DNA of 60,482 nucleotides, the filler included, from Hausera hauseri (taxonomy: Eukaryota): NCBI GenBank assembly GCA_046269625.1. It is 12 parts of 12 records of this genome, joined end to end, with 100 filler letters (N's around TTAATTAATTAA, not from the genome) between each part and the next. Parts side by side here need not be neighbours in the genome. Positions count along the whole stretch, not along the records: positions 9,343 to 13,585 come from JBJURY010679773.1; 11 more parts are not named here. The stretch is one strand, 5' to 3'. Shown here piece by piece: positions 4,786 through 60,482 of the stretch (the stretch's first letter is position 1; the number at the start of each line of letters is the position of its first letter). Below the pieces are notes generated by a model, which saw only the letters and a program-made list of their open reading frames with translations, was not told where the DNA came from and made no database searches. The position numbers were made by a program, and so were the translations under genes.

Positions 4786-5005
4786 AAATGCAATATTTTA
4801 CATTAAGGATTAAATTGATGGACAAAGGTTTACACAACTCCATTCAGACTTTCCATAGTTGCGAATGACGACGCATTCAACAACATTGAACAACTCGCTG
4901 ACAATGGTGCCTGACAAAATCCAATGTCCATATCGTGATCATGGACCACATTGTGCTTACACAAAATGTTTATGGCTTTGTACTGACTTTGTTTCATGCA
5001 AATAA
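4786..5005 (+). pseudogene. 3' end of Polinton DEDD-like exonuclease gene (paralog of 9344-9800)
   Basis: IFYIKD...CPYRDHGPHCAY; collinear DNA similarity to 9585-9800. Confidence 0.65.
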
Positions 5006-5121
5006 ATAAATATATGTACGTATTTCCTTCTTTCTGTAAATAATGATCATGTCATGTTTAGCAGTATTGGTCAATTAAATAATTCAAAAACCATAAATAC
5101 GTGCAGGTTATAATAATAATA

Positions 5122-5489
5122 ATGGAAACTGTACACATTTATTACGAATGACATCAGTAAAGTGAAGGTAATTTGTATCACGGTTATAACAGACAATACT
5201 CACAAAGTAAATGTCTATTGTTTACAATGAAAACAAATCGGTATGAACAAATTTGATAGTTGACAGTGGTTTCGTGTTGAGTAACGATATCCGAGATACA
5301 TCGTCGGTTTTTCTTAAAGGAAATATGGCGAAAATTGTCAGTTTGCATTGCGGGGAAACAGCGGCAGCAAAATTAGTTTTGCCACCGGAAGGATCTAAAG
5401 GCCATCTAACATTGAAGTTGAAATGATACAAGGGTCTGTACGGCGTTAAATCACCAATATGGAAACTGGGGAAGTTTACTATGATTTAA
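5122..5489 (+). pseudogene. Polinton accessory region: RING-gene remnant (METVHIYYE*) plus internally deleted unknown ORF
   Basis: Collinear with 10356-11009 (LSNDIRDTSSVFLKGNMAKIVS...KGHLTLKLK), lacking roughly 10490-10770. Confidence 0.7.
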
Positions 5490-5800: not shown

Positions 5801-8800
5801 TCAATGTCTATACGCCCCATTTTTATTCCGCCTCACCCACTTTCGCTTATCATTGTTGTATGACAAAGCGACTTTCGCACTAGTTATTGTATACAGCTGG
5901 TGCTCAATCGATCGGATGACCGTTTGAGACACAACAGTTTTTGATTGTCTTTGTTCTTCTTCTTCTTCATAGACACGGCGATGATCACGGCGGTTTATTT
6001 CCGTCTGGGCCAACTGAATTCCTTTGGCGCCCATTTTTGGTCCACAGTCGGTTAAAAGTCTACAACAATTTGTCGTAGAAATATGCATCCCTGTTAGTGA
6101 ACCCGACCTTCACTTTTATCCTTGAAGCATCCGATTTTGTTTGTGATGGCGCTGATGTACAAAGTGTGATACTGTAGGTAATTGGACGTGTCCAGTAATC
6201 CATCTGCCATCATTTGCCGCCGTATTTGTTTGCGATTGAGGTTATGCAGTTCGAAGAAAAAACTATCTGTGTCACCGGCAATTATATTGATCCTGCATCC
6301 ACTGCCTCCGCCAAACATTTGCCGGTATCGTGCCAAATCGCGATACTGCAGCTTATACATTTACAACTTGCTCAGATCCAATACCACTTGTCTGATATAA
6401 CTTGGCAAGTTTAGTACGACTTCTTCCCTGTTTAAAAGCACGGCAACCAATCCGTAGGAAATGTGCATTTACCACCAAAACTGCTCCTTACTCGTGTTCG
6501 TGACCAACCGCTTTTCGCTATTGCACAGGTGTACATCGAGCCGATTTTTCAGATTCTCCATTGTTTTCCATAGAGAGAATTATTTTTCGGTTTGGGATAG
6601 TCTTTTTCAAACTATGTACAAGCTGCTGCTCGTTTTTCCGAATTCCGACTGATATACGGCTTGAATATGGGAGCCTGTGCAAATCGGATTGCGCAATGAA
6701 GCTGTGTGACGCGTACACCCAACAACATGTAAAATTGCAACAGGTGCTAACGAACTATGTAATTTTGCTTAAGCTCATGCGTCATAAGCAGCTTCTTCAC
6801 CTTTGAGCCCGGCGGACGTTGGATGATTGGTCTGACCGGCAGTTCATCCAAAAAGTCACGCAGCTCATCTAATACCACGAGATCAACTTCCATCAGGTAT
6901 CGAATTGAGCTGTTTTCTGTTGTGTTTGCTCTCGGCAGATTTTCTATTATGTCGTCCAGCTCTTGCTTGTCTACTATCCATTCGAATGAACTGTACGGTA
7001 AGGGTTGTGAAAGCGCCCAGCCGTACAGGTTATTAATGCCGATACACAACAGTGATGTGGAATCATCGCTGGTTACTTGATGCTTGTTAACATCAAACAT
7101 TCGGTACATTTCCGGGTCTTGCAATAGCTTGATATCCCGATCCAGTAACATCAGAGCTGATGCCCAACTCATTCCGGGTATTGAGTAAAAGTTGAGTGGC
7201 TTCAGTCTATCTTCTGTCAACCCTTTAGCTCGAATTGCCTGAAACATATCGGCTAACAAGTACACATTCAATTTCAGATAGTAAAGCATGTACTCCAACA
7301 GGTTTCTGCAGTCAAGCTCTGCCCAAAACAATTGTGCTTTGTGATATTCTTCTTCTGTTATACTGGGCCATTGTGGCGGTAATTCATCAGTCGTCTGGAG
7401 CCGCTCGTACTATATCGCAAAGTCATACGGGAATATGCCTTTGCTACGCGTTACATGCACAGGGAACTAAGTCATTGCTAGCGGCACATTTGGTAAGGAA
7501 TTTACCTGCTTTGACAGAGATTCATGGAGAAATTAAGATGAATCAAGAAATCATACCTGGAACCGGTTTATACGAGCAGGAAGTGATAGGCATTTCTCCA
7601 TCGTAGTCGGAATTACGGATAGTTCCCAGTTCGGAAATCCACTTATTACCCATTTCAAAATATGGTGACAATCATAACTCCTGAAGTTATTAAATACCAC
7701 CAGTAGGAACGGCCGCAAACGCCTTGCCAAATTGCATGAATTGCATGCTGTTCCCAAGTATCGACCGGTAAAATGATCGTGATCCGATACGAATTGTTCC
7801 TGCGCATCAAAGGGTAATATTTTTTTGGCACAGATAACATTCGTCGGTGGCTGCAAACATTAACAGTTCATATTCGTCTGTCCACATCAAGGGTTTGTTG
7901 CTATTTCTACTCTACTAGAATGCAATTTGCGTTTTTACTATTGTTTCCAAGTGACGCAGGAAATCACGGATACACTTCCAGCCGTGAAAAACGTAATACT
8001 ACAGTTGATCAGTGGCTTTTATTGGGACTAACAACATACCGACATCGATTGGAACGAGCTTTTGATTATATACATTTTGCCGTGGTAGAAATGCTTCAAT
8101 GTCAGCACACATCACGTATGCCGGACTATCGAATTTTGACCAGTCACTGAATCTCAGCTCCTTTTTGATTGCCATGACGAACATTGTGGTTTTCGAGGAA
8201 TTTTGTCTGCACAGAGTGACATGTTTGTCCCATTTTATTTCTGATCTGAATTCGTGAAGACATACGGGACAACATTTACATCGTACAGGCTTTTTGATAA
8301 ACTGGTCATGTTCCATGTTCAACAGTCTGTCCAAATTTGTCACGGCCACGAAATGGAGTTTTTCCTTTTGTTTTAACAGCAACAAATTTATTGGGCGGCC
8401 ATTTGGGTTCCGACTACGATAGGTTATATGCACATAAGGATTTTTGTAAATTTTTCCATCCGCAGGTATTTCTATTATTGTGTTGTCCTGGAATACGTTG
8501 ATTGCCAGTGTCGTATTACGCCGCTCAAATGTCGGCTTGGATTTCAGTTTCATCGGCATCTAGCACCCATCGTAATTTAATTCGGAAAAATATTTCTGAT
8601 ACTGTTTTAGACTATATGCACTATGCCTGTCCACTTCGTCATATTTCAATACCGCCAGAACATTGTAAAGAAAACAGTATTAGTTGTTAGTATTTTTTAC
8701 ATTCACTACCGCCAGAGACTGCTTCAGAGCTGCGGGTGTCGGTATGAATTATCGTCTAGACAAATATATTATGTTACTCGACTTTGTTAAGATAAAGCCG

Positions 8801-9173
8801 AGGGTGACAATTTTTATAATTCGCCATCCACTACCCTTTTTTGTGTATTTGGCGATTTTCTCCTAGAGCCTTTCGCCTACATCAACAATAAAATCTTTGG
8901 CGTATGGTACAGCTCGATGTGACAGGTACCATTGTTTTCTGTCACCTTCCAAATTTTCGAATTCTGCCAGTGCATAATATTGCACTTTGCAGTGATGTTG
9001 GAATTTCTCCAATTCTGATTCCAACCGGTTGCGCACATTTTGCGAATATATCTGAATTGCATTGTTGTTTTCGCCATCGCTGACATGTTCGCTTTTATGT
9101 CCACGTACAATCTGTTCAGATCGTACTTGACTGTAATATTGTGAATATTGGCATCCTGTTGCTCCTGTTGTAG

Positions 9174-9343: not shown

Positions 9344-9800
9344 TTCCAAGATGATAATGCCCGGTACATAATAAAGGAATTATGCATTATGGATGTCGGT
9401 AACATTTTCGAACCGCTTGTGTACATATTCAAGCCCGGTATTGTGTAGAAAAACTTGACGGAAAAAGCGAAAATTACAAATGGATTTTTCTTTGGACATC
9501 GTTATCGACTTCATTGGAATGAAGGCAATTCTGTTTTCTGTGGCGTGTATTATGGGAGACATTTGTGATCGTGTTGACATTGCAAATACAATATTTTACA
9601 TTAAAGATCAAATTGGCGGACAAGAGTTTACACAACTCCATTCAAAGTTTTCCGTGCTGCGAATGACGACGTATTCAACGTCGAGCAGCTCCCTGGCGAT
9701 GGTACCTGACAATATTAGATTCCGTATCGTGATCATGGACCACATTGTACTTATAAAAATGTCTACGGCTTTGTTTTGACTATATTTCATGCAAATAAAT
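9344..9800 (+). pseudogene. Polinton accessory DEDD-like 3'-5' exonuclease
   Basis: Across frameshifts: FQ..YIIKELCI..YIFKP..NLTEKAKITN..LHWNEG..FYIKD..PYRDHGPHC. This matches the KEL/FKP/LxWxxG/YVKG/C-H-C pattern of Polinton/adintovirus DEDD proteins. Confidence 0.65.
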
Positions 9801-9905
9801 AAATGTATTTCACTGTTTCCTTTTTTCCCGTAAATAAGGTACGTCGTATTTGTCAGTTGAATAATTCAAAACTATAAATACGGGTAGGAAATAATATTAA
9901 TCGTC

Positions 9906-10385
9906 ATGGAAATAGTTAATCAATTGAAGCAATTGCAAAATTTTGATGGATTATCAATTTCACACTTGACACGATGGTGGCAAATACTTGATAATGGGCT
10001 GGTTGCGAGAGCAGCAGGTGATTTTGGATTTAAAGAAGATTTGGCGTCAATATCATTGAAGACAGCAACAACAGACTGTAGCTCTGTAGAAAATCTAATA
10101 ATTATATTAAATAAAATGTTCATTCACCGATTGTACGATACAAATTAATTTGATACTGTTGAAAAGGTACGCAGTGAATTAACGAACATGAAAGAGAAAA
10201 TAATGGACAAAGTATGAGACTCTCAGTTTTTGTGTGTACTATGTAAACAAAGAAGAGTGGATACGGTATTCTTAATGTGCAGGCATCTCGTTGTTTGTCA
10301 AATGTGCACCACCACCAAAGTAACTCACCAATATCCAGAATGTAAATGTGCTATAATGGAAATAGTGCACATTTATTACAAATGA
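9906..10385 (+). pseudogene. C-terminal C3HC4 RING (IAP/MIB-type) E3-ligase-like gene, 159 codons with two in-frame stops
   Basis: In frame with ORF 9906: CVLCKQRRVDTVFLMCRHLVVCQMC..YPECKCAIMEIVHIYYK*. One Cys has become Tyr. Confidence 0.8.
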
Positions 10386-11009
10386 CTTCTTCAATAACGG
10401 AACATAGGCTTCAATGATGTGGAGGTAATTTGTATCATTGTGACATAAGACAATACTCAAAGTAGATGTCTATTGTTTATAATAAAAACAAACCTTTGAT
10501 ATAAATATGGATGCAATTTTATTTCACGTTTGTCATCTTTAAAAGATGTCTGGAAAACAATTCAGCAGGTGAGAGTCTCTCAAAAAACCACGGTACAGCG
10601 AATATTCGCTCAGAAATTCCCGGTTGTATAATGGATACAACTTACATTATCTGCGCAACGCTATTCAATTGCCCTTGACGCAAACGGTCAAAATCAAACC
10701 GGTGAAATATGGTTTATTGGTGAAAAAGATCATCGGCGATGATTTGGATACAATGGAAGACACAATTAGAAAGTTGACAATGATTTGGCGTTAAGTAACG
10801 ATATCCGCGGTACATCGTCAATTTTTCTTAAAGGAAATATGGTGAAAATTGTCAGTTCACATGGTGGAAAAACAGAAGCAGCAGCAGCAAAAGCAGTTTT
10901 GCCACCGGTAGGAGCTAAAGGCCATCTAACATTGAAGTTGAAAGGATACAAGTATTTGCACGGTATTAAATCACTAATATGGAAGCTGGGAAAGTTTATG
11001 CTGATTTGA
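10382..11009 (+). pseudogene. Conserved Polinton ORF of unknown function, convergent on polB
   Basis: The C-terminal 74 aa are conserved in the second copy (5270-5489). Disrupted upstream. Confidence 0.55.
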
Positions 11010-11191: not shown

Positions 11192-11903
11192 TCAATATCC
11201 GTACGCCCAACTCTTATTTCGCCCCACCCATTTACGCTTATCATCATTGCATGATAAAGCGACTTTTGTATTGGTCACCGTATACCACTGGTGCTCAATG
11301 GACCGGATGATCTTTTGTGACACAACAGCCTTTGATTGTCTTTCTTCTTCATAGATATGACAATAATCGCTATGGTTTATTTCTGTCTGAGTCAACTGAA
11401 CTCCTTTTGTGCGCATTTTCGGTCCACCATCAGTTAAAAGACTATAACATTTTGGCCGTAGAAATATCCATTCCCGATACTGAACCCGACCTTCATTTTC
11501 ATCCTTGAAGCAGCCGATTTTGTTGGTGATCGTACTGCTGTACAACGGATGATCCGGTGGATAGTTGGACATATCCAGTAATCCATCTGACTGCATTTGC
11601 TCCAGTAGCTGTTCGCGATTGACTGTTTTCATCCGCAGGAAAAAATTATCTGTGCCACCGGCCATCAAACATTTGCCGGTAACGTGCCAAATCGCGATAC
11701 TCTTGCTCATACATCCGTAACTTGCTCATGTCCAATATTACTTGTCCGATTTAACTTGGCCGATCCAGAACGACTTCTTTCCTGTTTAACATCACCGCAA
11801 CAAATCTATCGGCAAAGTGCATTGACAACTGACTCTGCGCCTTACTCGTGTACGTGACCAAACGCTTTTCGCTATTGCATGGGCGTACATTGAGCCGCTT
11901 TTT
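11192..11903 (-). pseudogene. polB: pPolB C-terminal fragment (second copy)
   Basis: KIGCFKDE, WIFLRPKCYSL, KRKW..WAYG; similarity to 5801-6550 ends abruptly near 11903. Confidence 0.92.
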
Positions 11904-11904
11904 A

Positions 11905-12087
11905 ATGAAGAATTTCCGAAAAACAATTGTTAAACATAAACCTACCAAGCGGGTGCCCGGCAAGAAACGTATATCAAAGCAAACAGCCGCTACAGTCAAG
12001 CGATTAATCAATTCTATGCTTCGAATAACAAAAGCAGCAGCAGCAGCAACTAGACGAAAATTACCGTCACAGTGGCAACGGTTATAA
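11905..12087 (+). CDS. Small Lys/Arg-rich protein, putative Polinton DNA-condensing core protein
   Basis: 60 aa, very basic (MKNFRKTIVKHKPTKRVPGKKR...), immediately upstream of the pX-like gene. Confidence 0.4.
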   Translation: MKNFRKTIVKHKPTKRVPGKKRISKQTAATVKRLINSMLRITKAAAAATRRKLPSQWQRL

Positions 12088-12122
12088 ACAACTACGTCTC
12101 ATCAGCATCAATACGTCAAAAA

Positions 12123-12458
12123 ATGCGATTCAAACGTAGTCAGCCGTACTTTATTGCTTTGCTCAAGGTAACTACGAGACGAAAGCGAAACATGCTGCGG
12201 TCATTCACACAATTTGTAGTACACAATTTTATGGAAATTTTATGCAATATCGTTGTGGGTCACATTGACATTGGTAGTGGAAAGCGGAATTTATTAAAGT
12301 ATCGAAAACGACTCATTGGCTTTGCCAACGCCCGTAGTAAACGACTGAAACGAGAGGTCATGTACCAGCAATATGGCGGATTCCTTGGTAAAATTCTACC
12401 GATTGTCACGTCATTACTGGGTGGACTCATTGGTTCTGCAGTAAAGTATAAACAATGA
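12123..12458 (+). CDS. Polinton/adintovirus pX-like (GasderminX-type) virion protein
   Basis: EILCNIVVGHI..LLKYRKRL..KRE..QQYGG^FLGKILPIVTSLLGGLIG: an adenain-like xGG^F site followed by an amphipathic helix. ORF intact. Confidence 0.8.
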   Translation: MRFKRSQPYFIALLKVTTRRKRNMLRSFTQFVVHNFMEILCNIVVGHIDIGSGKRNLLKYRKRLIGFANARSKRLKREVMYQQYGGFLGKILPIVTSLLGGLIGSAVKYKQ

Positions 12459-12557
12459 CGGTAAGTATATAATGATTCGCCGATATGGGTGTATGGTTTT
12501 TATCTTTCTGTCCCATTTTACCGAATCTTTCATTTACGTTTCGTTCTCGTTGTTGTA

Positions 12558-13585
12558 ATGCTAACAAAAGCGCCATCATCGACGACAACGACGGGCTACG
12601 TGTGGTTCGACCTGCGTCATCCTGTCGGGTATACTGGCGTCGATAAACTGGAAAGACTGTCAAACAAACTCGGCAACAGACCCAACGTTGGTTCGGGAAA
12701 TAGTTAGCATGTAGCCTAAACAAACCGATAGGAAGGCGGATTCCAACTCGTGTATACCGTGCTGCCGGTTTAAATAAAGCGTGGCAAATGGACCTGATAA
12801 AAATGATTCCATACGCCAGCATCAAGGATGGGTATCGGTACGTGCTGACATGTATTTATTTGTTTAGTATTTTGCACGTGCAATTGCTGTGAAATCTAAA
12901 TCCGCTAAAGAGATTGCAGACGCTGTTCGGACACTGATACAACAACAACAGCCGAAGCATTTACAAACGGATTTGTGTAAGAAATTCTACAACGCCCACG
13001 TTGCAGCGGTCTTGAAACAGTTCGGCGTAAACTACTACTCGGTGTTTTCTCAAAACAAGGCTGCATCGTTGAAGGATTTAATCGAACATTGCGCGGTCGC
13101 CTAAACAAATTCTTTACGGAGCAAGGCAACAAGCGCATAGTAGATGTACTGCCGGATATTATTCATATATATAATCATTCGATATATCGTGGAATCAACG
13201 GAATGCGCCGAGTTGACATAATCGATGATTTGGACATGTGGCTTTATTAAAATGGAACAAAACGACAGGCAATTAAACGCCCAAAATATAAAATGGGTGC
13301 TTACGTACGTATTTCGAAAATAAGTACGACGCCATTCATTAAGAATTTCAATTAGAACTGAAGCGACGAGGTTTTGCGCATTTGGGCAATCAACACAAAA
13401 CAAACAGCTTTCATGTACGTTTTAGAGAATGATAACGGTGAGGAAATACATGGTAAATTTTACGAATAGGAACTGCAGGTTCTGCCCGAAAAACCCTATG
13501 TATATCGTATTCAGGAAATTCTACGTTCACGTGGCAAAGGTTTGAATAAACAATATCTCGTCAAGTGGCACGGATACACTGCACC
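12558..13585 (+). pseudogene. int: Polinton retroviral-like (rve) integrase with C-terminal chromodomain
   Basis: HPVGYTGVDKL, WQMDL, GYRYVLTCI, LQTD..KFYN, EGFNRTL, YVRISK, GKFYE, IQEILRSRG..YLVKWHGY. Confidence 0.93.
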
Positions 13586-13685
13586 NNNNNNNNNNNNNNN
13601 NNNNNNNNNNNNNNNNNNNNNNNNNNNNNTTAATTAATTAANNNNNNNNNNNNNNNNNNNNNNNNNNNNNNNNNNNNNNNNNNNN

Positions 13686-16600
13686 GATATGCACAGAAAG
13701 TTCCTTACCCTCTTTAGAAATAATGGCATTGTGGGAGTGTAACTGGACGAGTTTGTAAGGCCCCAAATACCGTGGTTGAAAGCCGCACGGCGTTTGATTT
13801 TTTAGCAATACGAATTTTGCCGAAAACAGGTCTTCAGGTAAATATGTTTTGTCTTCGTGGAGTAACCTGCAGAACGAATCTTTACTGATCGTAACAAAGT
13901 GATTTTGCACTGCCCGTATCGTTTCATCTGTAAGAGTGTCGTCTAGGACAGTAAGTTCGAATAATGACCGTACAGGGGCTCCGAATAAGGCTTCAGTAGG
14001 TGAACAGCCGGTAGAAGTAGACGGAGTGTTCCGCCAGCCAAGCAGAACAAATGGAAGAAGATTTGTCCAACTAGTGTTTGACTCGGCAAGTATTCTTAAT
14101 GACGTTTTCAATGTTCGGTGGAAACGTTCTAAAAGGCCATTCGATTGGGAGTGATAAGGCGTAGTATGTATGTGCTGGATCCCCAATCGGTTAACAAGAA
14201 ATTTGAACTGTGGACCCTGGTCCGTGAGGTGACCCAAACCTGCTAATCCATGTACGAATGAAAATGTCAGCTACGGTGTCGGTATTTGTGCTCCGCAGAG
14301 GAATGGCTTCTGGCCATGGCGAAGAACGGTCCATCATGGTGAGAGTGAATTGATGACCGTTGTCCGGAGGAAGAGGGCCGACGATGTCAATATGCACGGA
14401 TTCGAAACGCGATGTGCATGGAAAGTAGAATAGTGTAGCTTCAAATGCTTAGCTGTTTTGTATTTTTGGTAAACCACACACTCCTTAACCCATATTTGCA
14501 CATGGGGACACATTGACGGCCAAACTACTTGTCGGTGGAGTAAACGAAAAGTGGCCTTAGCGCCAAGGTGGTGTAGCGAATGTGCACTGTTAAACACTTG
14601 CCGTTGTAAAGGTGGTGCGAAAATTATTACGGAATGACTTGGTTTGGAGTGTCTAAAGCCACGCCGTCAACATTTATGCAAGACTTAAAAGTATTAAGCA
14701 CGTCCTGAGGTGGCTGGTTCTGTTGAAGTTGTACGTGAGTGAAGACTGGTGAAAAATTAATCGAACCAACCATCCTAGATAAGAAATCGGCAAATAAATT
14801 GTTAACCCCGTTAATATGTTTTATGTCAAAGTTAAATGTCGAGAAATATGATATCTGTTGTTCTTGGCGCGAGGAAGGATGTTTCATACCCATGATGTTT
14901 AGCAAGGGCTTGTGATCGGTCTCTATGGTAAAATGGCGAGCTACAAGTAGGTGGGAGAAATGCTTTAAAACGAGAACGATGGCCAATAATTCCTAATCGA
15001 ACGTTGAGTACCTAGTTTCAGGAGGTGTTAACGTGCGTGAAAAAACTCCAAAAGACGGTTCTTTCCCTTATAGATTTGATGAAATACAGCCCCCATGGCA
15101 GTGATGGAGGCGTCTGCGGTGAGGATCAGCTGTGCATCATGCTTGAGGAAAGCCAATATCTCGACAGCTTTTAAACCTCCCTTTGGCTTTTCGAATTTGT
15201 TTACTGGTCCAGGGGTCAGTTGTATTGGCTGGTGTTTTTCAACCACTGAGGTGAGCAAATTGTGTGGTAAGTTCAGAGCAGTACGGCACATACTTGTGAA
15301 CAAAGTCCAAAGTGCCCCAAAAGCTCCTTATTTCTGTTGTTGTTCAAGGTAGCTTCACGTTTTAGCACTTCAACTCAATCGGGATGAGACGAGTAACCTT
15401 CGGAAGAAATAATGCGACCAAGGTAGTTTATACGCTACTGGAAAAAGTGACATTTGGCAAAATTAATTTGCAGGATATACTGGTGTAAACGTTGAAAGAT
15501 TGATCTGAAATGTTCTTCGTGTTGTTGGGTTGAGGAAGAAACGATTAATATGTCATCAATATAGGAACGAGCATATGGCAAATCAAAAAGAATAGTATCG
15601 ATGTGGCGTTGAAAAGTCTGTGCAGCATTCTGTAGGCCAAAAGGCATGTACAGATATTCGTAAAGGCCAAAAAAGTAGTGACGGCTGTTTTTTCGATATC
15701 CTCAGGTGCCACAGGAATTTTGTGGTAGGCTTTGTATAAATCAATGGTAGAATAAATTGTAGTTGAATGGAGACGGTGTAAGATATCCTTAATGAGTGGC
15801 AACGGGTATGCATTTTTATTGTCAAAGTGTTCAACTGATGATTGTGGTTCCTTGGTTGAATCAGAAAATTTTAATAGTCCCAGCATTATATAATAACGAA
15901 AACGACAAACGTATTAGTCTACTATTTATTTTTTTTTAAATTCTTTTCATTAATCATAAATCGTTATTTCTATACAGATTTAAAACATATCAACGTACAC
16001 ATATATACATATTTATATACAGTTCATATTACAGTTTGAGAATTTCGTAATAATGAGCTTTGAATATTCGATGAATATTTTGGTTTTGGAAGAACGACAA
16101 GAAAACACTTGAGCTAAACTTTTGTTGAGGTGTTGATTAACCTACCTTTGAACTTTGTTTCAATTATCGCTTGTCGTTATATTGTCAGAGGATCTCTCAA
16201 TCTTAAACAGGAATCCACAAATTCGAATCGTTGTAGTCTTGATGAAACACTACGGTACGACGAAGCAAACCGACAAAAGTGCATCAATTCGTCGGCAAAA
16301 CAATTAGCAACAAAAAAACAAAAAATTAAGGTAACACGACACTTGTTGGAATTTGAAAAGTCTGAGCAGCATTCTGTAGGCCAAAATGCATGTACAGTTA
16401 TTCGTAAAGGCCAAAAGGAGTAGTTACGGCTGTTTTTTCGATATCCTCAGGTGCCAAAGGAATTTGGTGGTAGGCTTTGATATATCAGTGGTAGAATAAA
16501 TTATAGGAGAATGGAGGCGGTGTAAGATATCCTTAATGAGTTGCAACGGGTATGCATCCATTATTGTCAAAGTGTTCAACTGACTATAATCACCACATTG

Positions 16601-23530: not shown

Positions 23531-24155
23531 CATTTTCTTCATTGTTATAAGCCGTGTTTTCTGTAGTTTCAAAGTATGAAATAAGCTTCGGTATCACGAT
23601 ATTCCAAATAGGAGGCAAATTCTTGTGGAGACTATAAACAAGCACTTTCATGGCCTTGATTATACTCAACCCTCTGTAGTTGTTTAATAAGGGAACCCCA
23701 GCAAGAACCAGCTGAGTGTGTTGACCTTAGTAATGTTATAGTTGAAGTCTATAAGGTAATCTACGTCATCGTATACATCGTTAGATTCTGGCACGTTATC
23801 ATCAGCATTGATACTTCCATCGATATCATTGGTACTAACTGTTGAAAATAAAGTATGTACAGAGTTGAAAATGACACCAGCAGCATCAATATAATTAGTT
23901 TGAGTCACCAAATCAAGACGATATGGCCAAAGTACAGGTCTTCGTGGTTTTATAGTACTGCTGCCCAGTTGAAAAACGTTTTCACTAAAGCTTCTCAACT
24001 GTCCAGATGAAAGCTGCTGAGCAGATGAGTCTAGCAGACCAAGTTTCATAATCTGCGACACAGATACGATTTGTGAAGGAAGTGCACAATTATGAAATAT
24101 AAATTCAATAAATTTTGTCCCACCAACTTCCTAAAAATGATCCTGACCGCTTATT
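23530..24155 (-). pseudogene. MROH1: MROH1-like (maestro HEAT repeat) N-half fragment
   Basis: GGTKFIEFIFHNCALP..VLWPY..RGLSIIKAMKVL..LHKNL..IWNIVIPKLISYF versus MROH1 GGEAMIEYIVQQCALP..VLWPYLL..WETTVPLLLGYL. Confidence 0.75.
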
Positions 24156-25580
24156 GCGATAAGAGATAAACGACGCGCTTCAGCAGATTTGTCACCAAGT
24201 CTGGATATTAACTGGTTCATTATGATGTCTATCATATTTTCTGCTTAAGGTTGTGCTAGACTTTCAACTGTAATTGTATAGACCGATCCATAAAATGCAG
24301 TAACAACAATTCGATGCTTCTTATAATGCTAATGAGCATACATACCCATGTGAGTAATAATATCGGGTATTTCGGAATTCGTATTCTGACAAAAGCTTCG
24401 TGAAAAAAGGAATGTAAAAGCCTGAAATTCTTCATTTTCCAGTTTCTCCCATCCATTTTGAACATTGATTTCCTCACTAAGTTCATGGGATATCGAACTA
24501 ATTATAAAGATTTTTAGGGTTCCCGAGGCAATTCTAACGGGTTTGAAATGAACAGCCAAATTTGCCTCAAGACCATTTTTCTTTACTTGTGACTTGTCAC
24601 TAAATGGTGTACAAATAACAGTTATACCAGAGGTCATTATAATAAGTCAAAATTTTACTATACATTTTCATCAGACGAGCTTCGCCACATTCAATACTTT
24701 CCGAGAACAAAATCTGTAAACAATTCAGCGTAGCCAACCAGGTAACAAGAAAATCTAAGAACTTTGTTCGGTTGACCTTTAGTTTTTCGCTGACTTGGAT
24801 CATCTCTTTCTTCAAACGGTATAGAACGATTAAGAAGTTCAATCAAATGAACTATACATTTGTCCAGTAGGTGGATTTAATTTGAAATATTGCATAATAT
24901 TTCTTTCCATATATCATCCAGTGGCAAATATTGTGTCATAACAAAATTTATAATTTCGACTGAATAATTAGGTGTAAATATATTTAGTGCACTAAGTACT
25001 CCTTTTCGTGGGTTATCAATTAGTGATGGAAGCACGTCATGAAGAGTTATTAAAATATTGATAATCTGTTCAGAAAGATCAGCATGCCGTAGTATAAAAA
25101 ACGTTTAGCATTACACATACTGCAGAGGCTCTATGCTTTTGTTTGTCATTTAATCCCGAGTAAAGACTTGCCATAAAGTCGTCAATTGATTGAACTTGAA
25201 GTTTTTACAAATAACTTTCAATACGTCATTTACGGCAGCAGACAAAATGTTGCTACCAAACCTTTCTAATCTTTCCTTTGCGGATATCAATGAACTCATC
25301 AAAGGATCGTTATTTCCATCTCGACCTAATAGGATTTTAAACTGAATCTTGAGCAATATCGAGACACCGTCAACAGTTAACTGACGGACACTAATATCAG
25401 GATCGGCAAGTCGAGGGATTAAATCGCCAAAAATTATTCCCCTACAATTAAATTGAGTTCCACTATTGTTTGTGTCCGATAATTCTTCGTAATACGGAAG
25501 CAAACATTGGTTGAAAATAGAAAGGGCCCGTTTTCGAATAAAATCACTTTCACATTTGATATATTGCGGAAAACATTGTA
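24155..25580 (-). pseudogene. MROH1: MROH1-like C-half fragment, intron-free and degenerate
   Basis: RKRAL..GDLIPRLADPDISVRQLTVDGVSILLKIQ..KVICK..LPLD..IPFEE..GWEKL..RIVVTAFY..LGDKSAEARRLSL versus MROH1 PRCAD..RQEAVDCVYSLLYLQ..GWELL..QRVTTTAF..DTCASVRRLVL. Confidence 0.8.
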
Positions 25581-26537
25581 CAATTGTACAATTGCTGCAA
25601 TGTTTGTTTCATTAAAATCGTTAGGCTTTAAGCATCTGGCAATTTCTGCAAATCAAGTGATTCTGTTGACTTCTGACACCATTGTAAAATTCGGTATTTC
25701 ATAATTCAAGGACTTAACCAAATGCTTCAACGTAATAAACATAGGGTATAAATATCCATAGCAATAACATTTTTAATTCCGTATCAAATTTTCAATCTTT
25801 ATTGAACAATTAATAACACATCAATCCTTTACACAATTGAAAATCCGCAATATCAAAATTAATAATGCATTTTGGTCACGAAATTGTCAATTTTGATTTG
25901 TTTGATAAAGGTTGTTTATGATTGTTTTTATTTTGAGTATCGTCTTTTGATGCTTCTTTAAATTTCGTGCCGTTATCCTATGTGAATTTCACTGGTGTTA
26001 AAAACCAATCAGCTATGTACAGTGTGCAGGCTCAACAATGCAATAACGAAATGAAAATGAAGTCATAAATACTGACACACATGCCTTCACAGAAACCTTT
26101 CTCTGCAAATCAATCAGGGCCACATCTACACCCACTGAAAACGTTCTATTAATTTGCTGAGCACAGTCGGCCATGCAAGGAAAGAAATATGTAAAATTGA
26201 GACAACGGTAAACAGCTATATTCTGGCACGATGAGATAAAAACAAAAGAAGTGCACGGAATCTTCGGCAATTACAAAATAAATAACAACGAAAGAGAAAA
26301 ACAATAACAGTATATTTGCAGGTTAATAAAATGGGTCCAAAGAGCACGACCTTGTTGGGCACAACAAGTACCATTTATGGAAACATCACAAATCAATCGC
26401 GATTACTCAAAGTATTTTTCTGCATTTGTACATAAGANNNNNNNNNNNNNNNNNNNNNNNNNNNNNNNNNNNNNNNNNNNNTTAATTAATTAANNNNNNN
26501 NNNNNNNNNNNNNNNNNNNNNNNNNNNNNNNNNNNNN

Positions 26538-33960: not shown

Positions 33961-34118
33961 TGTAATTAGTACATAAACGTCGCGCATTTCAATAAATTTT
34001 TGTTTTTGAACATGTCTGTGTTTTTCACTGAAATCGAATGTTTTCAAAATGATAATAATTGCGTTATTAATAAATTATGTATAATGGATAACTGTGACAG
34101 TCTTCAGCCGTTGCACTA

Positions 34119-35913
34119 TAGTGCGTTTCATATCAATGAAAAGGCACCCTTAAATTTTACCCTACCTTGAGTTATATGTCGGCCAGAGTCCTAATCTTTT
34201 TTATATTTTAAAGAGCATAAAAAATAACAGGGCTAATGTGTTTTAAGAGGAAAACTCTTACCGACTTTTTCTGGAAGTCATGAAAGTATGAAAAGTGACC
34301 GTTTCACGTCAATAAAACACTTTCAGGTTGGAAGATTTTTATTGAATTTAACCATCGAAAAACATCATAGCTACTTTAAACACTTTGAACAAAACTAATA
34401 GAAGTTTTAAGAACGATACAATTTGAAAAAAATTTTGTAAAATAATCTTTAGTAGTCGGTGACTCGTCCTGATCGATTTATCACTTGAAAAATTCTATTT
34501 TTCATGCTGTAAACAAGATTTTTAATGACATTTGCATCCAAATTGTTCCAGGCAACTAAGATCTCTTTTAGCTCAGGAACTGTCGAGAATTGTTTGCAAT
34601 TTTTGTAAACCTCTCTTACCATGAGATCCCAAAGATTTTCAATGGAGTTAAGATCGGGTGAGCGACTGTGCCAATCCATTACATTCACCCAATTTTCGGC
34701 CATCCATTGCTTTGTATAGTTACTTACCAGCATTGTCTTGCTGGTATTCGTAAGCCAACTGTGGAAAGAGGGCCAGAAAAGAGAACAAACTTTTATCCAA
34801 AACATCAACGTAATCTTGACTTTTCATTCGACTTGAAATGAAGCGGATGTCGACTAATCCATCAGCAAAAAAACGCCCAACACATTACAATACCACCATC
34901 GAAATTCCTTGTACCAAAATAAATTGGTTTCTTACGTAAGTCACGCTAATAATGTGTATAACCTTCGGGACCGTCGAGGTTCCGTTTTTTTTTTCGTCCT
35001 TGAAAATGACTTTCGTCCAATCCTTTGTCATATTATTCCGTACAAAATCCAAACGAGCATCTTTATGTTCTCGTTCAAGAGTTAGCTGTTTTAACAGCGT
35101 TTCCCGTTTGATTTGAGGAGTTGTCTTTAATGCTCATCAAACAGTCGATTTTGACACTTCAAACTTGAATCCTTCCCTGACCTGATTCATTGAGCTTCCA
35201 TGAATATTATTGGCAATTTGTCTAAAATCTCGAGCTAAAAGATTATTTTTGTCATTTGTGCGCTTTCTTTTCCATATGTAGACGTGCCCTTCAAATAATT
35301 ATTAATTAGAGTAGGCGATCTCTTAGGCGAATAGCAATTTGTCGGTTTGATGTTTTCAGAGCATGTAGAAGATCTATTTGATCCTCCTCATAGTCGGAAA
35401 GAATTGCGCAAAGTGGTATTTGACTAAAAAATCAAAAATTTTGATTTTGTGTAAAAACAAAAGAAAAAAGCCGTGTTAGTTGCCTGGAATAATTCGGATG
35501 CAAATGTTATTAAAAATCTTGTTTACAGCATGAAAAATACAGTTTTTCAAGTGATAAATAGATCAGGACGAGTAACCGACTATTAAAGATTATTTTACAA
35601 TTTTTTTTCAAATTGTATCGTTCTTAAAACTTCTATTAGTTTTGTTCAAATGTTTTCAAAGTAGCTATGGTGTTTTTCAATGGTTAAATTCAATAAAAAT
35701 CTTCCAACCTGAAAATGTCTTTATTGATGAGAAACGGTCACTTCATACTTTCATGATTTCCAAAAAAATTCGGTAAGAGTTTTCCTCTTAAAACACATTA
35801 GCCATGTTATATTTTATGCTTTTTAAAATATAAAAAAAATTAGGACTCTAGAATACATATAATTCAAGATAAGGCAAAATTTAGGGGTGCCTTTATTGAT
35901 GTAAAACGCACTA
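34119..35913 (-). mobile_element. Complete Tc3-like (Tc1/mariner) transposon with ~440-bp TIRs and TA TSD; transposase (35418-34449) degenerate
   Basis: TIRs at 34119-34559 and 35476-35913 (TAGTGCGTT...AACGCACTA), flanked by TA. Motifs DEKK.NLDGPEG..RDLRK..RNFDGG and SPDLNSIENLW. Confidence 0.93.
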
Positions 35914-36237
35914 TATACCGTTGTAACCATGCGCAAAACTTTTGTTTTGTTTAGTCATAAGTTTTTGTGCGTGTATCATTTTTATATTGTATATCATGAC
36001 ATTTGAATGAGAATTACACAATTGAAAAAAGCAAAATAACTTAACAAGCAAAATATTTAGAAAAATCAATTGTAAATTATTTAAATGTTCAAATTGTAAT
36101 TTTCATTCATAGAAAAAATTAAAAACCAATATTTTGTTGCATTTGTGTAATAGTGTGATTATATAATACCAATAACAACAATAATAATAATAAACGTTGG
36201 TGGGAAAACAATGAGTTTTAAGACACTTATTAATCAG

Positions 36238-37302: not shown

Positions 37303-38187
37303 TTAAATCATTGCCGAAGCAAACTGGTACCCTGTTCGAAGGCTATTCCACATTCGACTAACGACATTTGTTTCCACCTTATGTGTCTTTCGTCCGACAC
37401 TTTCAACAGTGTCCGGTGGTCGTGACCTTGTTTGCAAATCAACTGTATCTCTATGCTTCCTTATGACTTTCTCTTGTTTAATACGCCCACTCTTCTTCCT
37501 AACGTTATCTCCACATTGAGTCAAAGTGTCCGCATACAGCTTCTCTACACCTTGTAAAGCAGAATCCTTTCCTTGATACCTCACATGTCTATCTTCACTA
37601 GCTTGACAACTTACTTCCCTCATTTCGCACATTAACTGTCGAATATCTGCCAATTCGTTATCCGTTGGAGCAGAAAACATGTGAAACTCTTGAATTCTCG
37701 CTTCTATTGCTGCTTGAGAACGTTTACACTGTTCATGAACTTCGAGAACCTGTCGATCCATCTCATTCGTGGCTGCTATGGCATCCTCATGAACCTCGTG
37801 ACTAACAATAATGTGATCAACCTCATGTGATTTCCTCTCGGGACGTCTAACTTGATCAACCTGTTTGACACTAACATTCGCCTGCAATTCAGCCATTTCG
37901 ATGTAATTATCAAATAACTGCAGCGCTAACTCCTCAAGTGCACGTGCTTTGGGTAGTAAATCGATGTGGAACTTTTCCTCCAACATGTGTCGTACTTGTT
38001 TAGCAGAGAGGGTGGAAAGATCGGCTGCCTCAAAAATGCTTTCAATAGCTGCTGTTAACTGTTCGGTATTGGGCTCAATACTCCTCTTATACACACGAGC
38101 GTTTCTCAGACTCATTTCTGTAACCAACCTGTGTCTTCGATGCGTAATATCATCCATAGCATCTGGAACATGTTTGCTTGCCATCAA
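37303..38187 (-). CDS. DEK-C-like domain plus coiled-coil protein (294 aa), probably a frameshifted continuation of the 532-aa ORF
   Basis: PNTEQLTAAIESIFEAADLSTLSAKQVRHMLEEKFHIDLLPK fits the DEK C-terminal pattern (P.D.EL..AI..IL..ADL..VT.KQVR..LE..F..DL..K). The frame stays open back to about 38250. Confidence 0.75.
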   Translation of the reverse strand: MMASKHVPDAMDDITHRRHRLVTEMSLRNARVYKRSIEPNTEQLTAAIESIFEAADLSTLSAKQVRHMLEEKFHIDLLPKARALEELALQLFDNYIEMAELQANVSVKQVDQVRRPERKSHEVDHIIVSHEVHEDAIAATNEMDRQVLEVHEQCKRSQAAIEARIQEFHMFSAPTDNELADIRQLMCEMREVSCQASEDRHVRYQGKDSALQGVEKLYADTLTQCGDNVRKKSGRIKQEKVIRKHRDTVDLQTRSRPPDTVESVGRKTHKVETNVVSRMWNSLRTGYQFASAMI

Positions 38188-38191
38188 ATCA

Positions 38192-39790
38192 TTAGCCTGT
38201 ACTGGTTTCTTTCTTTTCTGTATCTCTGTTCTGCTCCCACTGCAATACTTCTATCTGCTCCACACCCTTGCAACAACTTTCCTCTGTCAATGCACTGGCA
38301 TTCGCATGTTCATGCCACGTCCAGGTCGGATAATCCGAAAGAATATCCTTGCACAAGTCCATATACCATTGCTTAATACACTTTACCTCATATGTGGTAT
38401 CTGAATATGCTTGATACAAACGGTCTAAAGCCTTTTTCGTAAACTTTCCTTTTTCGATAATCGCACACCAAACGTCCTGACATCCCGATATCAAGTCTAA
38501 AGACAATAGCAACTCATGTTCACCTGTAGGTAAGACTTGCGTTTCGAGCTTTTTAACATATTTTCTCACTTTATCTCGATGTAGATCCGAAGTTTTGATC
38601 AAACTACACATGTCATGTTTAAGGTTTATGTATTTCTCGTCTATCTTATGCTTTTGTTTACCAATTGTACTTAAGCTGTCTTGCAATTCTAAAAGTAGTG
38701 TCTCTTTTTCTAACAATTGCTTTCGCAGATTGTCTACTTCTATAACATTTATCGTGTTGGTGTCTAATCTTTCTTTTAATTCTTGATTATCGTATCTTAA
38801 TTGCTTATTTTGTATCTTTAAGTTCTCTATGATTTCTACAAGTTCTTTAGCTTTGTGATTTAATTGTTCTACATGGCCTTGTAAATTTACAATTATCTGC
38901 TTATTCGCTTTGTCTGTTTCTGTCATAACCTCAACTTCTTTATTCTTATTGTTCGCCTTGTCCCGAATTTCTTCTCGCTTACTAGACGCACTAAGTTTTG
39001 TAGTAGCTTCTTCAGACTGCTTGTTCAGTGTTTCATGAGCTTGGTGGAAAGATCTATCAACACCGGCTTCCATGACTCTGTCATTGTCCGACAAGTCTGA
39101 TTCCGTAATGCCGATCCCTGTATCTGTAGAACCATCCATTTCTTTCTCATTTGCCTCATTTGTTACCCTATTTCGCTCCACATGTATGTTCGAAACTGAT
39201 TGCATGGGACCGTTAACTACCTTTTTACTTTTAACTTTCAAGAAAGACTCGTTAACGTGCATACTATGTCGTATCTTGTCCTTCAGCTCTACTGATTTTT
39301 GTCTCGCATGCACCTTAAGTTCGGAATAAGTTTTCGTATCTTCTAATATATTCTGATCAGTAGTAAGCTCAGCGTCACTGTCTAATAATGCTCCTAGATG
39401 TTTAATGTTCTCATGGGGTTCAAAATGTTCTGATCTTAAATTAGTTTCAAGTAGTGAGCTACCCTGATTTTTGCATTCTCTATCTTGACTCCAACATTTC
39501 GGCAGTTCTAAGTCATTACAATTCCTATTATTATTCTTCATTTGAGACTGTAAATCTTGAACCTTATCAACTAGCTGTGTCATTTTAATCAGCACTTTCC
39601 TTAATGTGGGCTCATAGCTAGGCTTAGGGAACCAATAACAATTACTTGCATAGTGTCCGTATCTACCACATGTAAAGCATTTGACTGGAAGGTATCTCTT
39701 ATGTTCGAAGGACTGTAGTCGAGCATCACTAGTGCAATTCGGACTGGACCCAGGGGACAATGCTAACAGTGCGTCAGCCTTACAAACCAT
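38192..39790 (-). CDS. Gag-like CCHC zinc knuckle plus long coiled-coil protein (532 aa)
   Basis: CFTCGRYGHYASNC at 39679-39638; heptad-rich K/E/L central region; no internal stops. Confidence 0.8.
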   Translation of the reverse strand: MVCKADALLALSPGSSPNCTSDARLQSFEHKRYLPVKCFTCGRYGHYASNCYWFPKPSYEPTLRKVLIKMTQLVDKVQDLQSQMKNNNRNCNDLELPKCWSQDRECKNQGSSLLETNLRSEHFEPHENIKHLGALLDSDAELTTDQNILEDTKTYSELKVHARQKSVELKDKIRHSMHVNESFLKVKSKKVVNGPMQSVSNIHVERNRVTNEANEKEMDGSTDTGIGITESDLSDNDRVMEAGVDRSFHQAHETLNKQSEEATTKLSASSKREEIRDKANNKNKEVEVMTETDKANKQIIVNLQGHVEQLNHKAKELVEIIENLKIQNKQLRYDNQELKERLDTNTINVIEVDNLRKQLLEKETLLLELQDSLSTIGKQKHKIDEKYINLKHDMCSLIKTSDLHRDKVRKYVKKLETQVLPTGEHELLLSLDLISGCQDVWCAIIEKGKFTKKALDRLYQAYSDTTYEVKCIKQWYMDLCKDILSDYPTWTWHEHANASALTEESCCKGVEQIEVLQWEQNRDTEKKETSTG

Positions 39791-40732
39791 TTTGACTGCC
39801 TGTGATCCGCATACAAATGTGTCAACTCAATCTCAAGGTATCTCTTATCCCTGTCTTTACATAAACCCTGTGTCAACACTATTGCCTCACACTATTATCA
39901 CTTAATAGCTTGCCTTGACTACGTCTCAGGAAAATCTCTTCTACAATAAGTCTCACCAATTAGTTTTACATCAGCATTTACATCATGTAACTTCTTGGAA
40001 ACAACAACAGCTTAAATCATAATCATCAGAGTATTCTTAACTCGTGACTTTACAATATGTCAGAACCAACTGTGATTTGGCAACAATTAGCACATTTATC
40101 TTCTGAATAAATACTAACACATCTCAAACTTCTCAACTCAATATATTGCTTCAACGGAATTCGTCTTGTCTCCTCAACTGGGGGATCAATACCATGTGTT
40201 CATCAACTGGGGACTAGGACTAGCCATGGTAAACCGCTTTATCAACAAAAAAACCCACTTATGGCTTATACTTCACTATCCCAATCTTTAGCTCAGCTTT
40301 AAACAAAATCTTTGTCTCAACCTTAACCAAAGTGTTTATCTCAACAAAAGTTCAACAAACTTCTAAACCTCACAACAAAATATTCATACAACTGTCTCGT
40401 CTTGTCTTCACCAGTGTTCACTGTGGCAAGTGTGTGTCAGCTGCGGATCAGCGCCTGTGTCATGGGCATCAATTGGAAAGTGTGTTTGTGATAGCGTCAG
40501 TCATGGGCATCACGTAATAAAAGGGTTGTGTGGTAGGGTCGCCATGAGCATCAATTCACCAGAGGTATTTTCTTCAAGGTTGGTGTGTGATCGAGTGCCT
40601 GAACTCAACAACCGGTTCAGAGAGGCCACTAANNNNNNNNNNNNNNNNNNNNNNNNNNNNNNNNNNNNNNNNNNNNTTAATTAATTAANNNNNNNNNNNN
40701 NNNNNNNNNNNNNNNNNNNNNNNNNNNNNNNN

Positions 40733-41449: not shown

Positions 41450-41680
41450 TCATTCAGTTTGTCCAATAATGCCGCATCGAATGTTGTTTTGCCTCTGGAG
41501 AGATAACTCCCTTCTCAAGCAAATTACTGCTAGCTTTTCCAAGTCACTAACATCAATGAGAAGGTTGATGTTTTACAGTTATCATTGCATCTCGTGTTTG
41601 GTCGTCCTCATCTCTTTGTCCCCTCTGACAACTCAACCAGTCAAATCTGTCTGGAAATGCGTCTGTCAATCACTCTACTA
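41450..41680 (-). mobile_element. RTE-clade LINE 3' remnant
   Basis: RVIDRRISRQI*LVELSEG..GRPNTRCND resembles the RTE C-terminal RM.D.R.P.QIL.GEL..G.R..GRP..R..D. Confidence 0.5.
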
Positions 41681-43641
41681 ATACACCCTTTTATGCCAAA
41701 TGTACCCAACATTTAAAGGGAAATGAACATTTAGTACAACAAAACACTAAACACATATACAAACACTTAGTACAGTTACAAGAACCACCACTATATAGAA
41801 GAATAAAAAGAGGATACAGTCTCTTCATTACAAACTACAAGGACATCTTCACAGATCTGCACAAACTGCCAGTACAGCCACAAGCTAAGGAAGTTACATA
41901 CAGACTCTTGTTCAGCATGTCACCTATCATACAATCAACACCACAATCTACTATCTTTCCAAGGTGTAGGTTATGTAATACAGGAATTCGCGAGACCGAG
42001 GACCATATTTTTTTCCATTGTTCCACTGTTACTCCTGCAATAAAAGCTCTTCACAGACTCATCACACCACACGCAAAACAGGCAGACATTTACAGAGCAA
42101 TTTTTCTGAACACGATACCCGTCACTGACAAACAAACTAAAACGACGTTGTTAGCTCTAATAGCAGACTACAGACTGTTGGTTTGGACGTGTAGAAATAG
42201 AGCAGTGTTTGATGGTAGAATGTGTGATGCGGAAATCTTTTCTGAGAAACTCAAACGTACAATTCAGAATCGACTGCAGTAACAACAATATACACCATCA
42301 CACACCAGAACCATCTAATTCTCTTTGTTCCTGTGAATAAGACACCAAGTTTTGTGATCTGACTGATATGCAAGTGGTCTGAGCGAGTGGTCCTTGTGTA
42401 TCCTTGGACTCAGATTTCCATTTCATGTTATAAAATGCAAAACCCAATGTATAGTCACACTTTGTAGCACCTTTTATCATGAATTTCATATATTACAAAA
42501 TGTAAAATGTAAACTGTTTGAAATGTGCTAACATATTTAATGTCCTATATAAATAGTTTGAAATGTGTCCAGATATCTAATATAAAACATATTTTATTTA
42601 GACTTTTGATTACTTATCTAATGCACACTTCTTTCATACAAAAGTCGTTATCGACTTCCTTCTTGACGTTCCATACTCTCTCTTATGTAATCCTATGTCT
42701 CTTCCCACGTGTTGGGTTTATTTCCCAATCACCGCCAGTTGTCTGGCGCTGTCCTTTCCCCTTATCTGCCATGCATCTGATGGTAATCCTCCTCATACCA
42801 AGCATCGCTTTTTATCTCTACCCTTTCCTCCAGTCTCAAGTTACTTTCTGCAGCTCTCGGCACCTTCAACAAGTCAAGCGGATTCCATATACTTCACTTT
42901 AAACCCGCAAGTCTTTACTCATGTCCCAATGACCAATCCCTATAGTCTCTTAGATGTAAACCCTTCCTATATTCTTTTTCTGCGGCCACAGGCCACTTTA
43001 ACCGTATGTAAATAGATTTCGTTGTACCACCTTTCAAAGTACGGCAGGAATGGTTATGTTTTATAAATTTGTAATTTTGCCCAAATAAGGCTGACATCTT
43101 TCTAGTGTAAATAAATCCAGTCGCAAAGACCAGAAGATCAGCAAATAGACAAGGACCACGCCCTTAAGAGAATAGACAGAGGCACTCAATTAACTTCCCA
43201 TGTTAGTCACCATCTATCAATAAAAGGGACTAGTCGTGCATAAAGCATGAATAGCTAGGGTCCTGAATAGAGAACAAAAGAGCGACAACCACTCCTAAAT
43301 TCTGACAAAGTAAAGTGTCGACAAAACATGTTGACACCTGATAGCGTCAGTAAGACCAGAGACGCCACCCCGTCTGGCCTTAATCCATTATCAACCCTGA
43401 AACAGCCAACCAACCCAATTGCCATGACATTTTGTATGTAATCATGCGTTGTGTGTGTAAGTACAGGAGCGTGAGTGCGTGGGGTTAAAATTATACAAAC
43501 AACAATCCGATGTCACTGAGAGAATGTACTGAACGCTAGCTAAATTTTTTACGATATGTATCAGACATGCCATATTTTGTATTACATTTCATTGAAATTG
43601 TCTATGAAGTCAATAAAAGCTTAAAAAAAAAAAAAAAAAAA
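41680..43641 (+). mobile_element. 5'-truncated Tx1/L1-like LINE: ORF2 C-terminus (41680-42282), ~1.3-kb 3' region and poly(A)
   Basis: zf-RVT CRLC..ETEDHIFFHC and LVWTCRNRAVFDG. AATAAA near 43613 and an A-tract at 43623-43641. Possible TACTAA TSD. Confidence 0.8.
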
Positions 43642-60245: not shown

Positions 60246-60482
60246 AAAAACATGTTCGGTGGTGTCAGATAAGATCAGATACAGGCAATTCAATTGGGTC
60301 TGGATATTGTGACAATTATTGACAATTATATTTGTTTTATTTCAATGTTAATAATTTACTTTATTGAGTGCCTTTTGTGTTTTGTTTTCGGTTACTTACT
60401 TAACTTATTATTATTAAGTAAAACAACAACCTTGTACGAGAAAACAAAATATGTAACACGAATACATATATTTATTCATGGG

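Follow-up and report, generated by a model that had tools for sequence, protein, structure and literature searches.

A six-gene block facing polB in a decaying Polinton family of Hausera hauseri, with predicted ssDNA-binding, Maelstrom-like and RING proteins

Introduction

Three small genes, ORF1, ORF2 and ORF3, lie in tandem opposite a polB gene in a stretch of Hausera hauseri DNA, which raises the question of whether they act together as a single weapon against the host or belong to a broader set of Polinton genes. An initial annotation, made from the sequence, described them as a Polinton accessory cassette of a DEDD-like nuclease, an IAP-type RING E3 ligase and a possibly uncharacterised ORF, and proposed that the ligase and nuclease form a counter-defence module. 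IAP homologues have been reported in adintoviruses and animal Polintons (Starrett et al. 2021, PMC8502044), and the available Suppl. Fig. S2 of that paper places the labels MAEL, SSDBP, IAP and dUTPase, without folds, on adintovirus maps, while ‘mael-associated’ insect polintons appear in the accessible text of Pannagram (10.1101/2025.02.07.637071). The window analysed here, meaning the whole stretch of 60,482 nucleotides, consists of 12 stretches joined end to end, with the three-gene block on stretch 3 (Table 1).

Table 1 Coordinates of the features discussed (window positions unless a contig is named)
Feature	Position	Strand	Basis or content
Host contig of the three genes (stretch 3), JBJURY010679773.1	9343-13585		DNA search
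ORF1, Maelstrom (MAEL)-like DEDD-type gene	9344..9798	+	motifs in homologues
ORF2, BIR-less RING gene, helical N-terminus, C-terminal C3HC4 RING at ~10233-10343	9906..10385	+	PF13920
Segment absent from the RING-less sub-lineage	9911..10350	.	contig comparison
ORF3, predicted OB-fold ssDNA-binding protein, T7 gp2.5 / giant-virus type	10546..11009	+	model of homologue
polB 3′ fragment, protein-primed, convergent on the block	11219..11876	-	tblastn map
Core/protein-VI-like ORF and integrase, inverted relative to the family's usual order	12008..13584	+	integrase: weak rve on sister fragment
Second copy (stretch 2)	4787..5480	+	ORF1 3′ part, RING remnant at ~5119-5152, partial ORF3
polB of second copy (stretch 2)	5828-9137	-	
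TBP-like gene	L033:6800-7199; L176:7344-7982	-; +	PF00352
ORF-U, ORF3 paralogue	L035:5976-6341; L043:6990-7351	-; -	P0006 match

Results

Copies of the block and loss of the RING gene

A DNA search of the genome with the block returned 56 matches, mostly at 78-88% identity (40 scored of 3212 candidates), so the three-gene observation is not a matter of chance. In protein searches of the genome, ORF3 had 1702 candidates and the RING gene 3517, of which 150 were scored in each case; these figures count candidates and not copies. Stops and frameshifts are scattered throughout the copies, with stops at 31 of 3911 aligned codons in the RING gene, 34 of 5670 in ORF3 and 26 of 2768 in ORF1; this Polinton family is old, amplified and decaying.

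The copy on stretch 3 is rearranged, since all that is left of its polB is a ~660-bp 3′ fragment, after which an inverted core/integrase piece follows. On stretch 2 the RING gene is reduced to its last ~10 codons. The earlier observation of three tandem plus-strand genes facing polB is therefore partly confirmed: it stands for stretch 3 and for other contigs, but the two independent contigs once counted within the window shrink to one, as stretch 2 retains a RING remnant and a partial ORF3. Stretch 12 (56520-60482) and stretch 2 each carry a decayed but almost full-length polB of this family, the two being 77% identical.

To follow the RING gene we used 25 informative contigs that hold both flanking genes, drawn from 56 not chosen by RING score. 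ORF3, RING and ORF1 are all present in 19 of them, and the RING gene is absent from the other six. All six break at an identical junction, joining window position 9910 to 10351, which indicates that a single RING-less lineage has spread and hence that the RING gene is not needed in cis. The RING loss on stretch 2 is near-identical to this junction. A deletion through short repeats at the start and end of the gene was considered and rejected; the junction overlaps, but not as a simple repeat collapse.

Gene order of the element

The order of the element was established from natural marker fragments mapped on 60 whole contigs and 11 window stretches, the contigs then being read rightward. Rightward polB meets six leftward genes, namely ORF3, RING, ORF1, dUTPase, ORF-U and a TBP-like gene, beyond which the genes run rightward from the ATPase through a core-like gene, the integrase, two minor-capsid-like genes and a major-capsid-like gene to a protease-like gene. 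The three genes of the initial annotation are the right half of this six-gene block as it is oriented in the window. The genes from TBP-like through polB occur together in L033, L035, L043, L048 and L052, whereas L176 joins the TBP-like gene to the integrase and capsid-like genes, and L174 adds the protease-like ORF.

PolB in sister copies matched PF03175 above the cut-off (E 4.7e-11, L041), which, together with the mapped gene order, bears out the Polinton context originally proposed. The integrase matched PF00665 (rve) weakly and below the cut-off on a broken sister fragment (E 0.017), as did the adenain-type protease with PF00770 (weak, E 0.0073, below cut-off). Pfam matches support the dUTPase (E 6e-20) and the TBP-like gene (PF00352, E 1.8e-13), and the TBP-like ORF found 32 matches among PDB sequences, nearly all named TBP, the best being 1mp9 (E 2e-10). 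By eye, a stretch upstream of this gene resembles the first TBP repeat; searches gave no match there. No Pfam family matched the capsid or ATPase ORFs, and the capsid, core/protein-VI-like and packaging ATPase labels are tentative assignments from motifs and from ORFs standing in the expected order. Likewise, the two tandem genes between the integrase and the capsid-like gene (L161, L168, L169, L177) are presumably minor-capsid-like. Upstream of polB, sequence common to the copies begins at a distance of about 1.3-1.4 kb. No terminal repeats turned up in these contigs, the right end lying outside the reach of the longest element-bearing ones (~10 kb).

ORF3 and its paralogue ORF-U

The window copy of ORF3 is frameshifted near 10770-10776. 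Searched in full with HMMER, a stop-free copy found five proteins at E≤0.001 among 1.84 billion: P0005, which is 55% identical, the distant P0008 and P0009, the repetitive P0007, dropped as spurious, and P0006 (E 3.9e-7). P0006 maps to ORF-U, the gene between dUTPase and TBP, making ORF3 and ORF-U paralogues; it carries a longer N-terminus, acidic and basic. A word-based homologue search for ORF3 found none among 74 candidates, and the ESM Atlas gave no usable match for P0006.

An AlphaFold model of P0005 built on a 13-row alignment adopted an OB fold at pLDDT 81.8 and pTM 0.72, while a single-sequence fold of the genome copy reached pLDDT 33. Comparison with 48,161 chains in VIA-align ranked T7 gp2.5 first (1je5, Z 6.6, rmsd 3.8, 107 aligned), followed by DUF2815 (4klk), ASFV CP312R (8hw5) and the Enc34 SSB (5odk) at Z 6.2 each, with the following row at 4.7; the tool calls values of Z below 8 common, and these top scores of 6.2-6.6 are to be read in that light. 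Foldseek ranked the same gp2.5-type group first in the PDB, none reaching E 0.001, and among viral models returned nine at E≤0.001, of which the six named ones are all giant-virus proteins. The likeness to gp2.5-type SSBs (1je5, 5odk/5odl, 4klk, 8hw5) thus consists of a predicted OB fold over 104-132 aligned residues, from which ORF3 differs in its 7-16% identity, its shorter length, its two paralogues and its setting in a protein-primed replicon. T7 gp2.5 carries an acidic C-terminal tail. The ORF3 family is without one, ending at or just past the last strand in both alignment and model. An excess at third codon positions persists in ORF3 (0.379, p 7e-4). The available part of PMC11253617 reports T7-like SSBs from Nucleocytoviricota and from mriyaviruses, mriyavirus PEV_26 being an example.

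The scores are moderate, and a fold is no proof of function; with three structure searches in agreement and the gene adjoining polB, ORF3 is nevertheless quite probably an ssDNA-binding protein, so that a gene once listed as possibly uncharacterised now has a predicted function, its top four structural matches being viral and of ssDNA-binding type.

ORF1 is MAEL-like at the motif level

In the window copy of ORF1 the 5′ end with the D-x-E motif is cut off by the contig start, and stops and frameshifts follow. A profile search gave 12 homologues among 2135 candidates, of which 11 full-length proteins were aligned and one 76-aa fragment was left out. Both D7 and E9 are kept in 10 of 11, and E22, H64 and a C-x(3-4)-H-x3-C-A motif in all 11, but no conserved third acid was seen in this alignment, and the fourth DEDD position is K in nine, Q in one and N in one, an acid in 0 of 11, making nuclease activity doubtful. 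The family has the E-C-H-C zinc motif of the Maelstrom (MAEL) domain, at the level of motif only, and a basic residue (K151) four positions past the last Cys. An excess at third codon positions persists here as well (0.372, p 0.017).

Fold-level searches added nothing to these motifs: none of the 13 members searched matched a Maelstrom or exonuclease family at E≤1, and Pfam, PDB, PHROG and the DnaQ profile gave no support for the fold. A DnaQ-type DEDDh exonuclease was rejected, with an hhalign probability of 1% (control 0.1%) and the four acids of that class incomplete. Of the checks the initial annotation called for, structure prediction gave an OB fold for the ORF3 homologue, and profile searches confirmed no fold for ORF1; the “DEDD-like nuclease” of that annotation survives as a motif, not as a profile match or a complete set of acids. 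For comparison with the host, no Maelstrom was found in the Hausera hauseri assembly (0 of 3 candidates).

According to the accessible sections of PMC4408791, metazoan Maelstrom binds RNA, is inactive as a nuclease and carries an ECHC motif that binds zinc but no DEDD, and in Bombyx MAEL the D122/E137 spacing and R306 match D7-E22 and K151 of ORF1, though the Cys-His-Cys spacing is unlike. An endoribonuclease report, known from its title as cited in PMC7968707, leaves the “inactive” status of Maelstrom unsettled. As far as the excerpted descriptions in PMC4408791, PMC2628886 and PMC7968707 go, ORF1 resembles the Maelstrom MAEL domain and the arenavirus NP exonuclease in having a Glu 15 residues past the first Asp and a C..H..C close to the C-terminus, and metazoan MAEL in its non-acidic fourth DEDD position, but differs in its ~160 aa, its retained D-x-E, its tighter C-H-C spacing and the absence of a PF13017 match. 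On these sequence motifs, ORF1 is best called MAEL-like.

A fragment of a more distant MAEL-like gene lies at window 34012-34119 (stretch 7), and a second Polinton family may therefore be present.

ORF2 is a RING gene without BIR

Read with X at stops, ORF2 matched PF13920 (zf-C3HC4_3) at 28.3 bits (cut-off 27, E 1.5e-6), and the two in-frame stops of the window copy fall at codons 81 and 104, so the RING interrupted by two stops, and the profile check suggested for it, both held up. The window copy has seven of eight zinc ligands, with Tyr at ligand 7; across the family, all eight are present in 16 of the 30 top-scoring copies and in P0004, each column being kept in 23-30 of 30, as the ligand check proposed at the outset required us to look for. 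The closest PDB sequences are the RINGs of cIAP1, cIAP2 and XIAP (E 3.4e-6 to 4.6e-4). ORF2 shares with these (6hpr, 3t6p, 3eb5, 4ic2) and with the MYLIP RING a C-terminal C3HC4 RING and a short aromatic tail, but in 27 of 30 copies Met takes the place of the Pro that precedes ligand 3, and in 28 of 30 Lys stands at the linchpin. A cationic residue at this position is described as common in the available part of PMC12326332.

No BIR family was found at E≤1 in three copies, as had been expected from the start, and in this ORF2 differs from cIAP1, cIAP2 and XIAP. The label “IAP-type RING E3 ligase” accordingly holds for the cIAP-like RING, but ORF2 is not an IAP, because it has no BIR. Its sequence makes it a likely, predicted ubiquitin ligase, and a dispensable one. 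The N-terminus shows an xGF...AL register resembling a UBA, at a probability of 1% and with 39 of 2000 shuffles equalling the score; a further shuffle test did not place it above shuffles, and the PDB search found no UBA match. For a UBA in ORF2, four sequence tests gave a register match and none was significant. A predicted complex of residues 1-80 with host ubiquitin scored 0.00, which favours neither side.

Selection on the RING gene was read from codon positions, because pairwise NG86 dN/dS values of 0.3-0.65 were distrusted for their lack of transition correction and score-based selection of copies. Among 29 copies not chosen by RING score the third-position excess is absent (0.340, p 0.37), whereas between sub-families, at dS near 0.55-0.76, pairwise dN/dS is 0.33-0.43 in a set chosen on protein score, a choice that pushes the ratio downward. 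The dN/dS comparison planned originally thus gave low ratios between sub-families, but codon-position counts did not repeat them. Outside the genome, ORF2 has one homologue among 18 candidates, the intact P0004 (70%).

Elsewhere in the assembly, at L175:8-2522 (+), a different type of RING gene (zf-RING_2, E 1.8e-9) comes after a 576-aa ORF, with a Polinton fragment on the same contig. The sole IAP-type UBA (PF21290) found in the Hausera hauseri assembly lies at L053:244-411; to us it reads like vertebrate Livin/BIRC7, and the sequence may be contamination. At least 150 ubiquitin-like matches occur in the genome, many divergent and some in open frames of more than 1000 codons; the family may be mobile or expanded.

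Discussion

Starting from the observed gene order, copy decay and common RING deletion, we think it probable that the block consists of decayed accessory remnants of a multi-copy Polinton, with ORF3 a replication SSB, ORF1 a Maelstrom-like RNA-binder with a weakened nuclease site and ORF2 a dispensable ubiquitin ligase. The block brings together genes of several, mostly known kinds and is not a single anti-host weapon. During copying, protein-primed PolB would displace one strand, which ORF3 and ORF-U could coat, while the dUTPase would guard the nucleotide pool and keep uracil from the DNA. The TBP-like protein may act at promoters of the element or the host, ORF2 may recruit a host E2 and tag some target, and ORF1 may bind RNA, perhaps blunting piRNA silencing.

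The initial annotation's alternative, in which ORF1, ORF2 and ORF3 form one counter-defence module whose ligase and nuclease remove host antiviral or silencing factors with ORF3 helping, gains from the adjacency of the three genes in 19 of 25 contigs, from a RING closest to those of cIAP and XIAP, and from the ECHC motif common to Maelstrom and the arenavirus NP exonuclease, which is said to suppress innate signalling in the accessible portion of PMC7968707. As a unit it is unsupported and decidedly unlikely: ORF3 resembles a replication SSB, the dUTPase, ORF-U and TBP-like genes sit in the same block, the fourth acid is missing from ORF1 in all 11 homologues, ORF2 has no BIR for caspase binding, and one lineage lost the RING alone. 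No more than two of the three genes suit a counter-defence reading, and for ORF1 and ORF2, judging by their sequences, a role in host interaction or counter-defence is plausible. Another reading takes ORF2 as a host IAP tail acquired by the Polinton lineage and carried as a passenger of little function, with which the single outside homologue of its N-terminus among 18 candidates, the deletion common to six of 25 contigs and the absent codon-position signal agree; we regard this as very unlikely, as the eight ligands persist across sub-families at dS near 0.55-0.76 with dN/dS of 0.33-0.43, a ratio biased down by score-picking, and the outside homologue P0004 is intact.

For ORF3, the moderate Z, the 7-16% identity and the missing acidic tail would also suit a pair of OB-fold proteins with another job than coating ssDNA, be it in annealing, in binding RNA or in the virion, all the more as the SSBs of protein-primed viruses are described, in the available parts of Kazlauskas et al. 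(PMC4889955), the Bam35 paper (PMC8276246) and the P12 paper (PMC11886824), as non-OB or only distantly related to OB folds. That gp2.5-type viral proteins came first in three independent searches, that the gene adjoins polB with a dUTPase close by, and that adintovirus maps carry an SSDBP label, in the portion of PMC8502044 at hand, makes such a job unlikely. We think ssDNA coating the more probable role of ORF3 and ORF-U. A bolder proposal, which we hold only tentatively and think somewhat doubtful, is that the lineage carries a giant-virus-like mini toolkit in which a TBP-like factor and a dUTPase stand beside paired gp2.5-type OB-fold SSBs, with the MAEL-like and RING genes as an anti-silencing arm; if so, a protein-primed replicon would use the canonical SSB class reportedly missing from such replicons, and a Polinton lineage might supply its own basal transcription factor.

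The element resembles adintoviruses in its pPolB and, on weaker profile matches, in its putative integrase and protease-like gene, as given in the accessible part of PMC8502044. The adintovirus labels MAEL, SSDBP, IAP and dUTPase sit on different maps and name no fold or family, and their identity with ORF1, ORF2 and ORF3 is therefore at label level only. The synteny check proposed initially yielded these single labels, but no locus from the IMG/VR and JGI scans. Matching longest contigs of outside homologues, 10,226 bp for each of P0011 and P0012 and 10,087 bp for each of P0009 and P0019, hint at synteny of the block outside this genome. No TBP label was found in the available supplement of PMC8502044, whose main text, in the part available, names TBP only in a figure legend, in the section on viruses from non-animal datasets. 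Searched by term, PMC11161782, 10.1101/2023.08.22.554363, PMC8097293, 10.64898/2026.10.13.758929 and 10.64898/2026.06.19.733378 yielded no Polinton SSB, TBP or RING gene. In the literature so covered, none assigns a gp2.5-type SSB or a TBP to an animal Polinton, though bioRxiv supplements and GenBank annotations may already name them.

Most of these gene kinds are known, and the less familiar part is the combination of paired gp2.5-type SSBs with a TBP-like gene; the surprise is limited because the copies are dead and adintovirus maps already label most of the kinds. The SSB pair beside polB supplies candidates for the way in which Polintons deal with the strand displaced in protein-primed copying, and it also suggests that genes have been shared with giant viruses. 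For host interaction, the candidates are the MAEL-like and RING genes.

Other features of the window and the assembly

Contig L083 (contig C12, 108 kb) is bacterial, has a very high AT content and carries carA-like and dnaQ-like genes, so that the assembly is not purely host DNA; its features are what we take to be typical of a reduced endosymbiont. Stretch 7 of the window contains a 445-bp inverted repeat (34117-34559 / 35476-35915, 91%). Retroelement pieces (RT, integrase, zinc knuckle, zf-RVT) and Maestro HEAT-repeat and DEK_C matches occur at 1494-2219, 13641-14270, 38195-39826, 41629-42279, 55157-55825, 23687-25608 and 37306-38250, and positions 45640-52103 (stretch 10) consist throughout of degenerate tandem repeats whose period is close to 67-68 bp.
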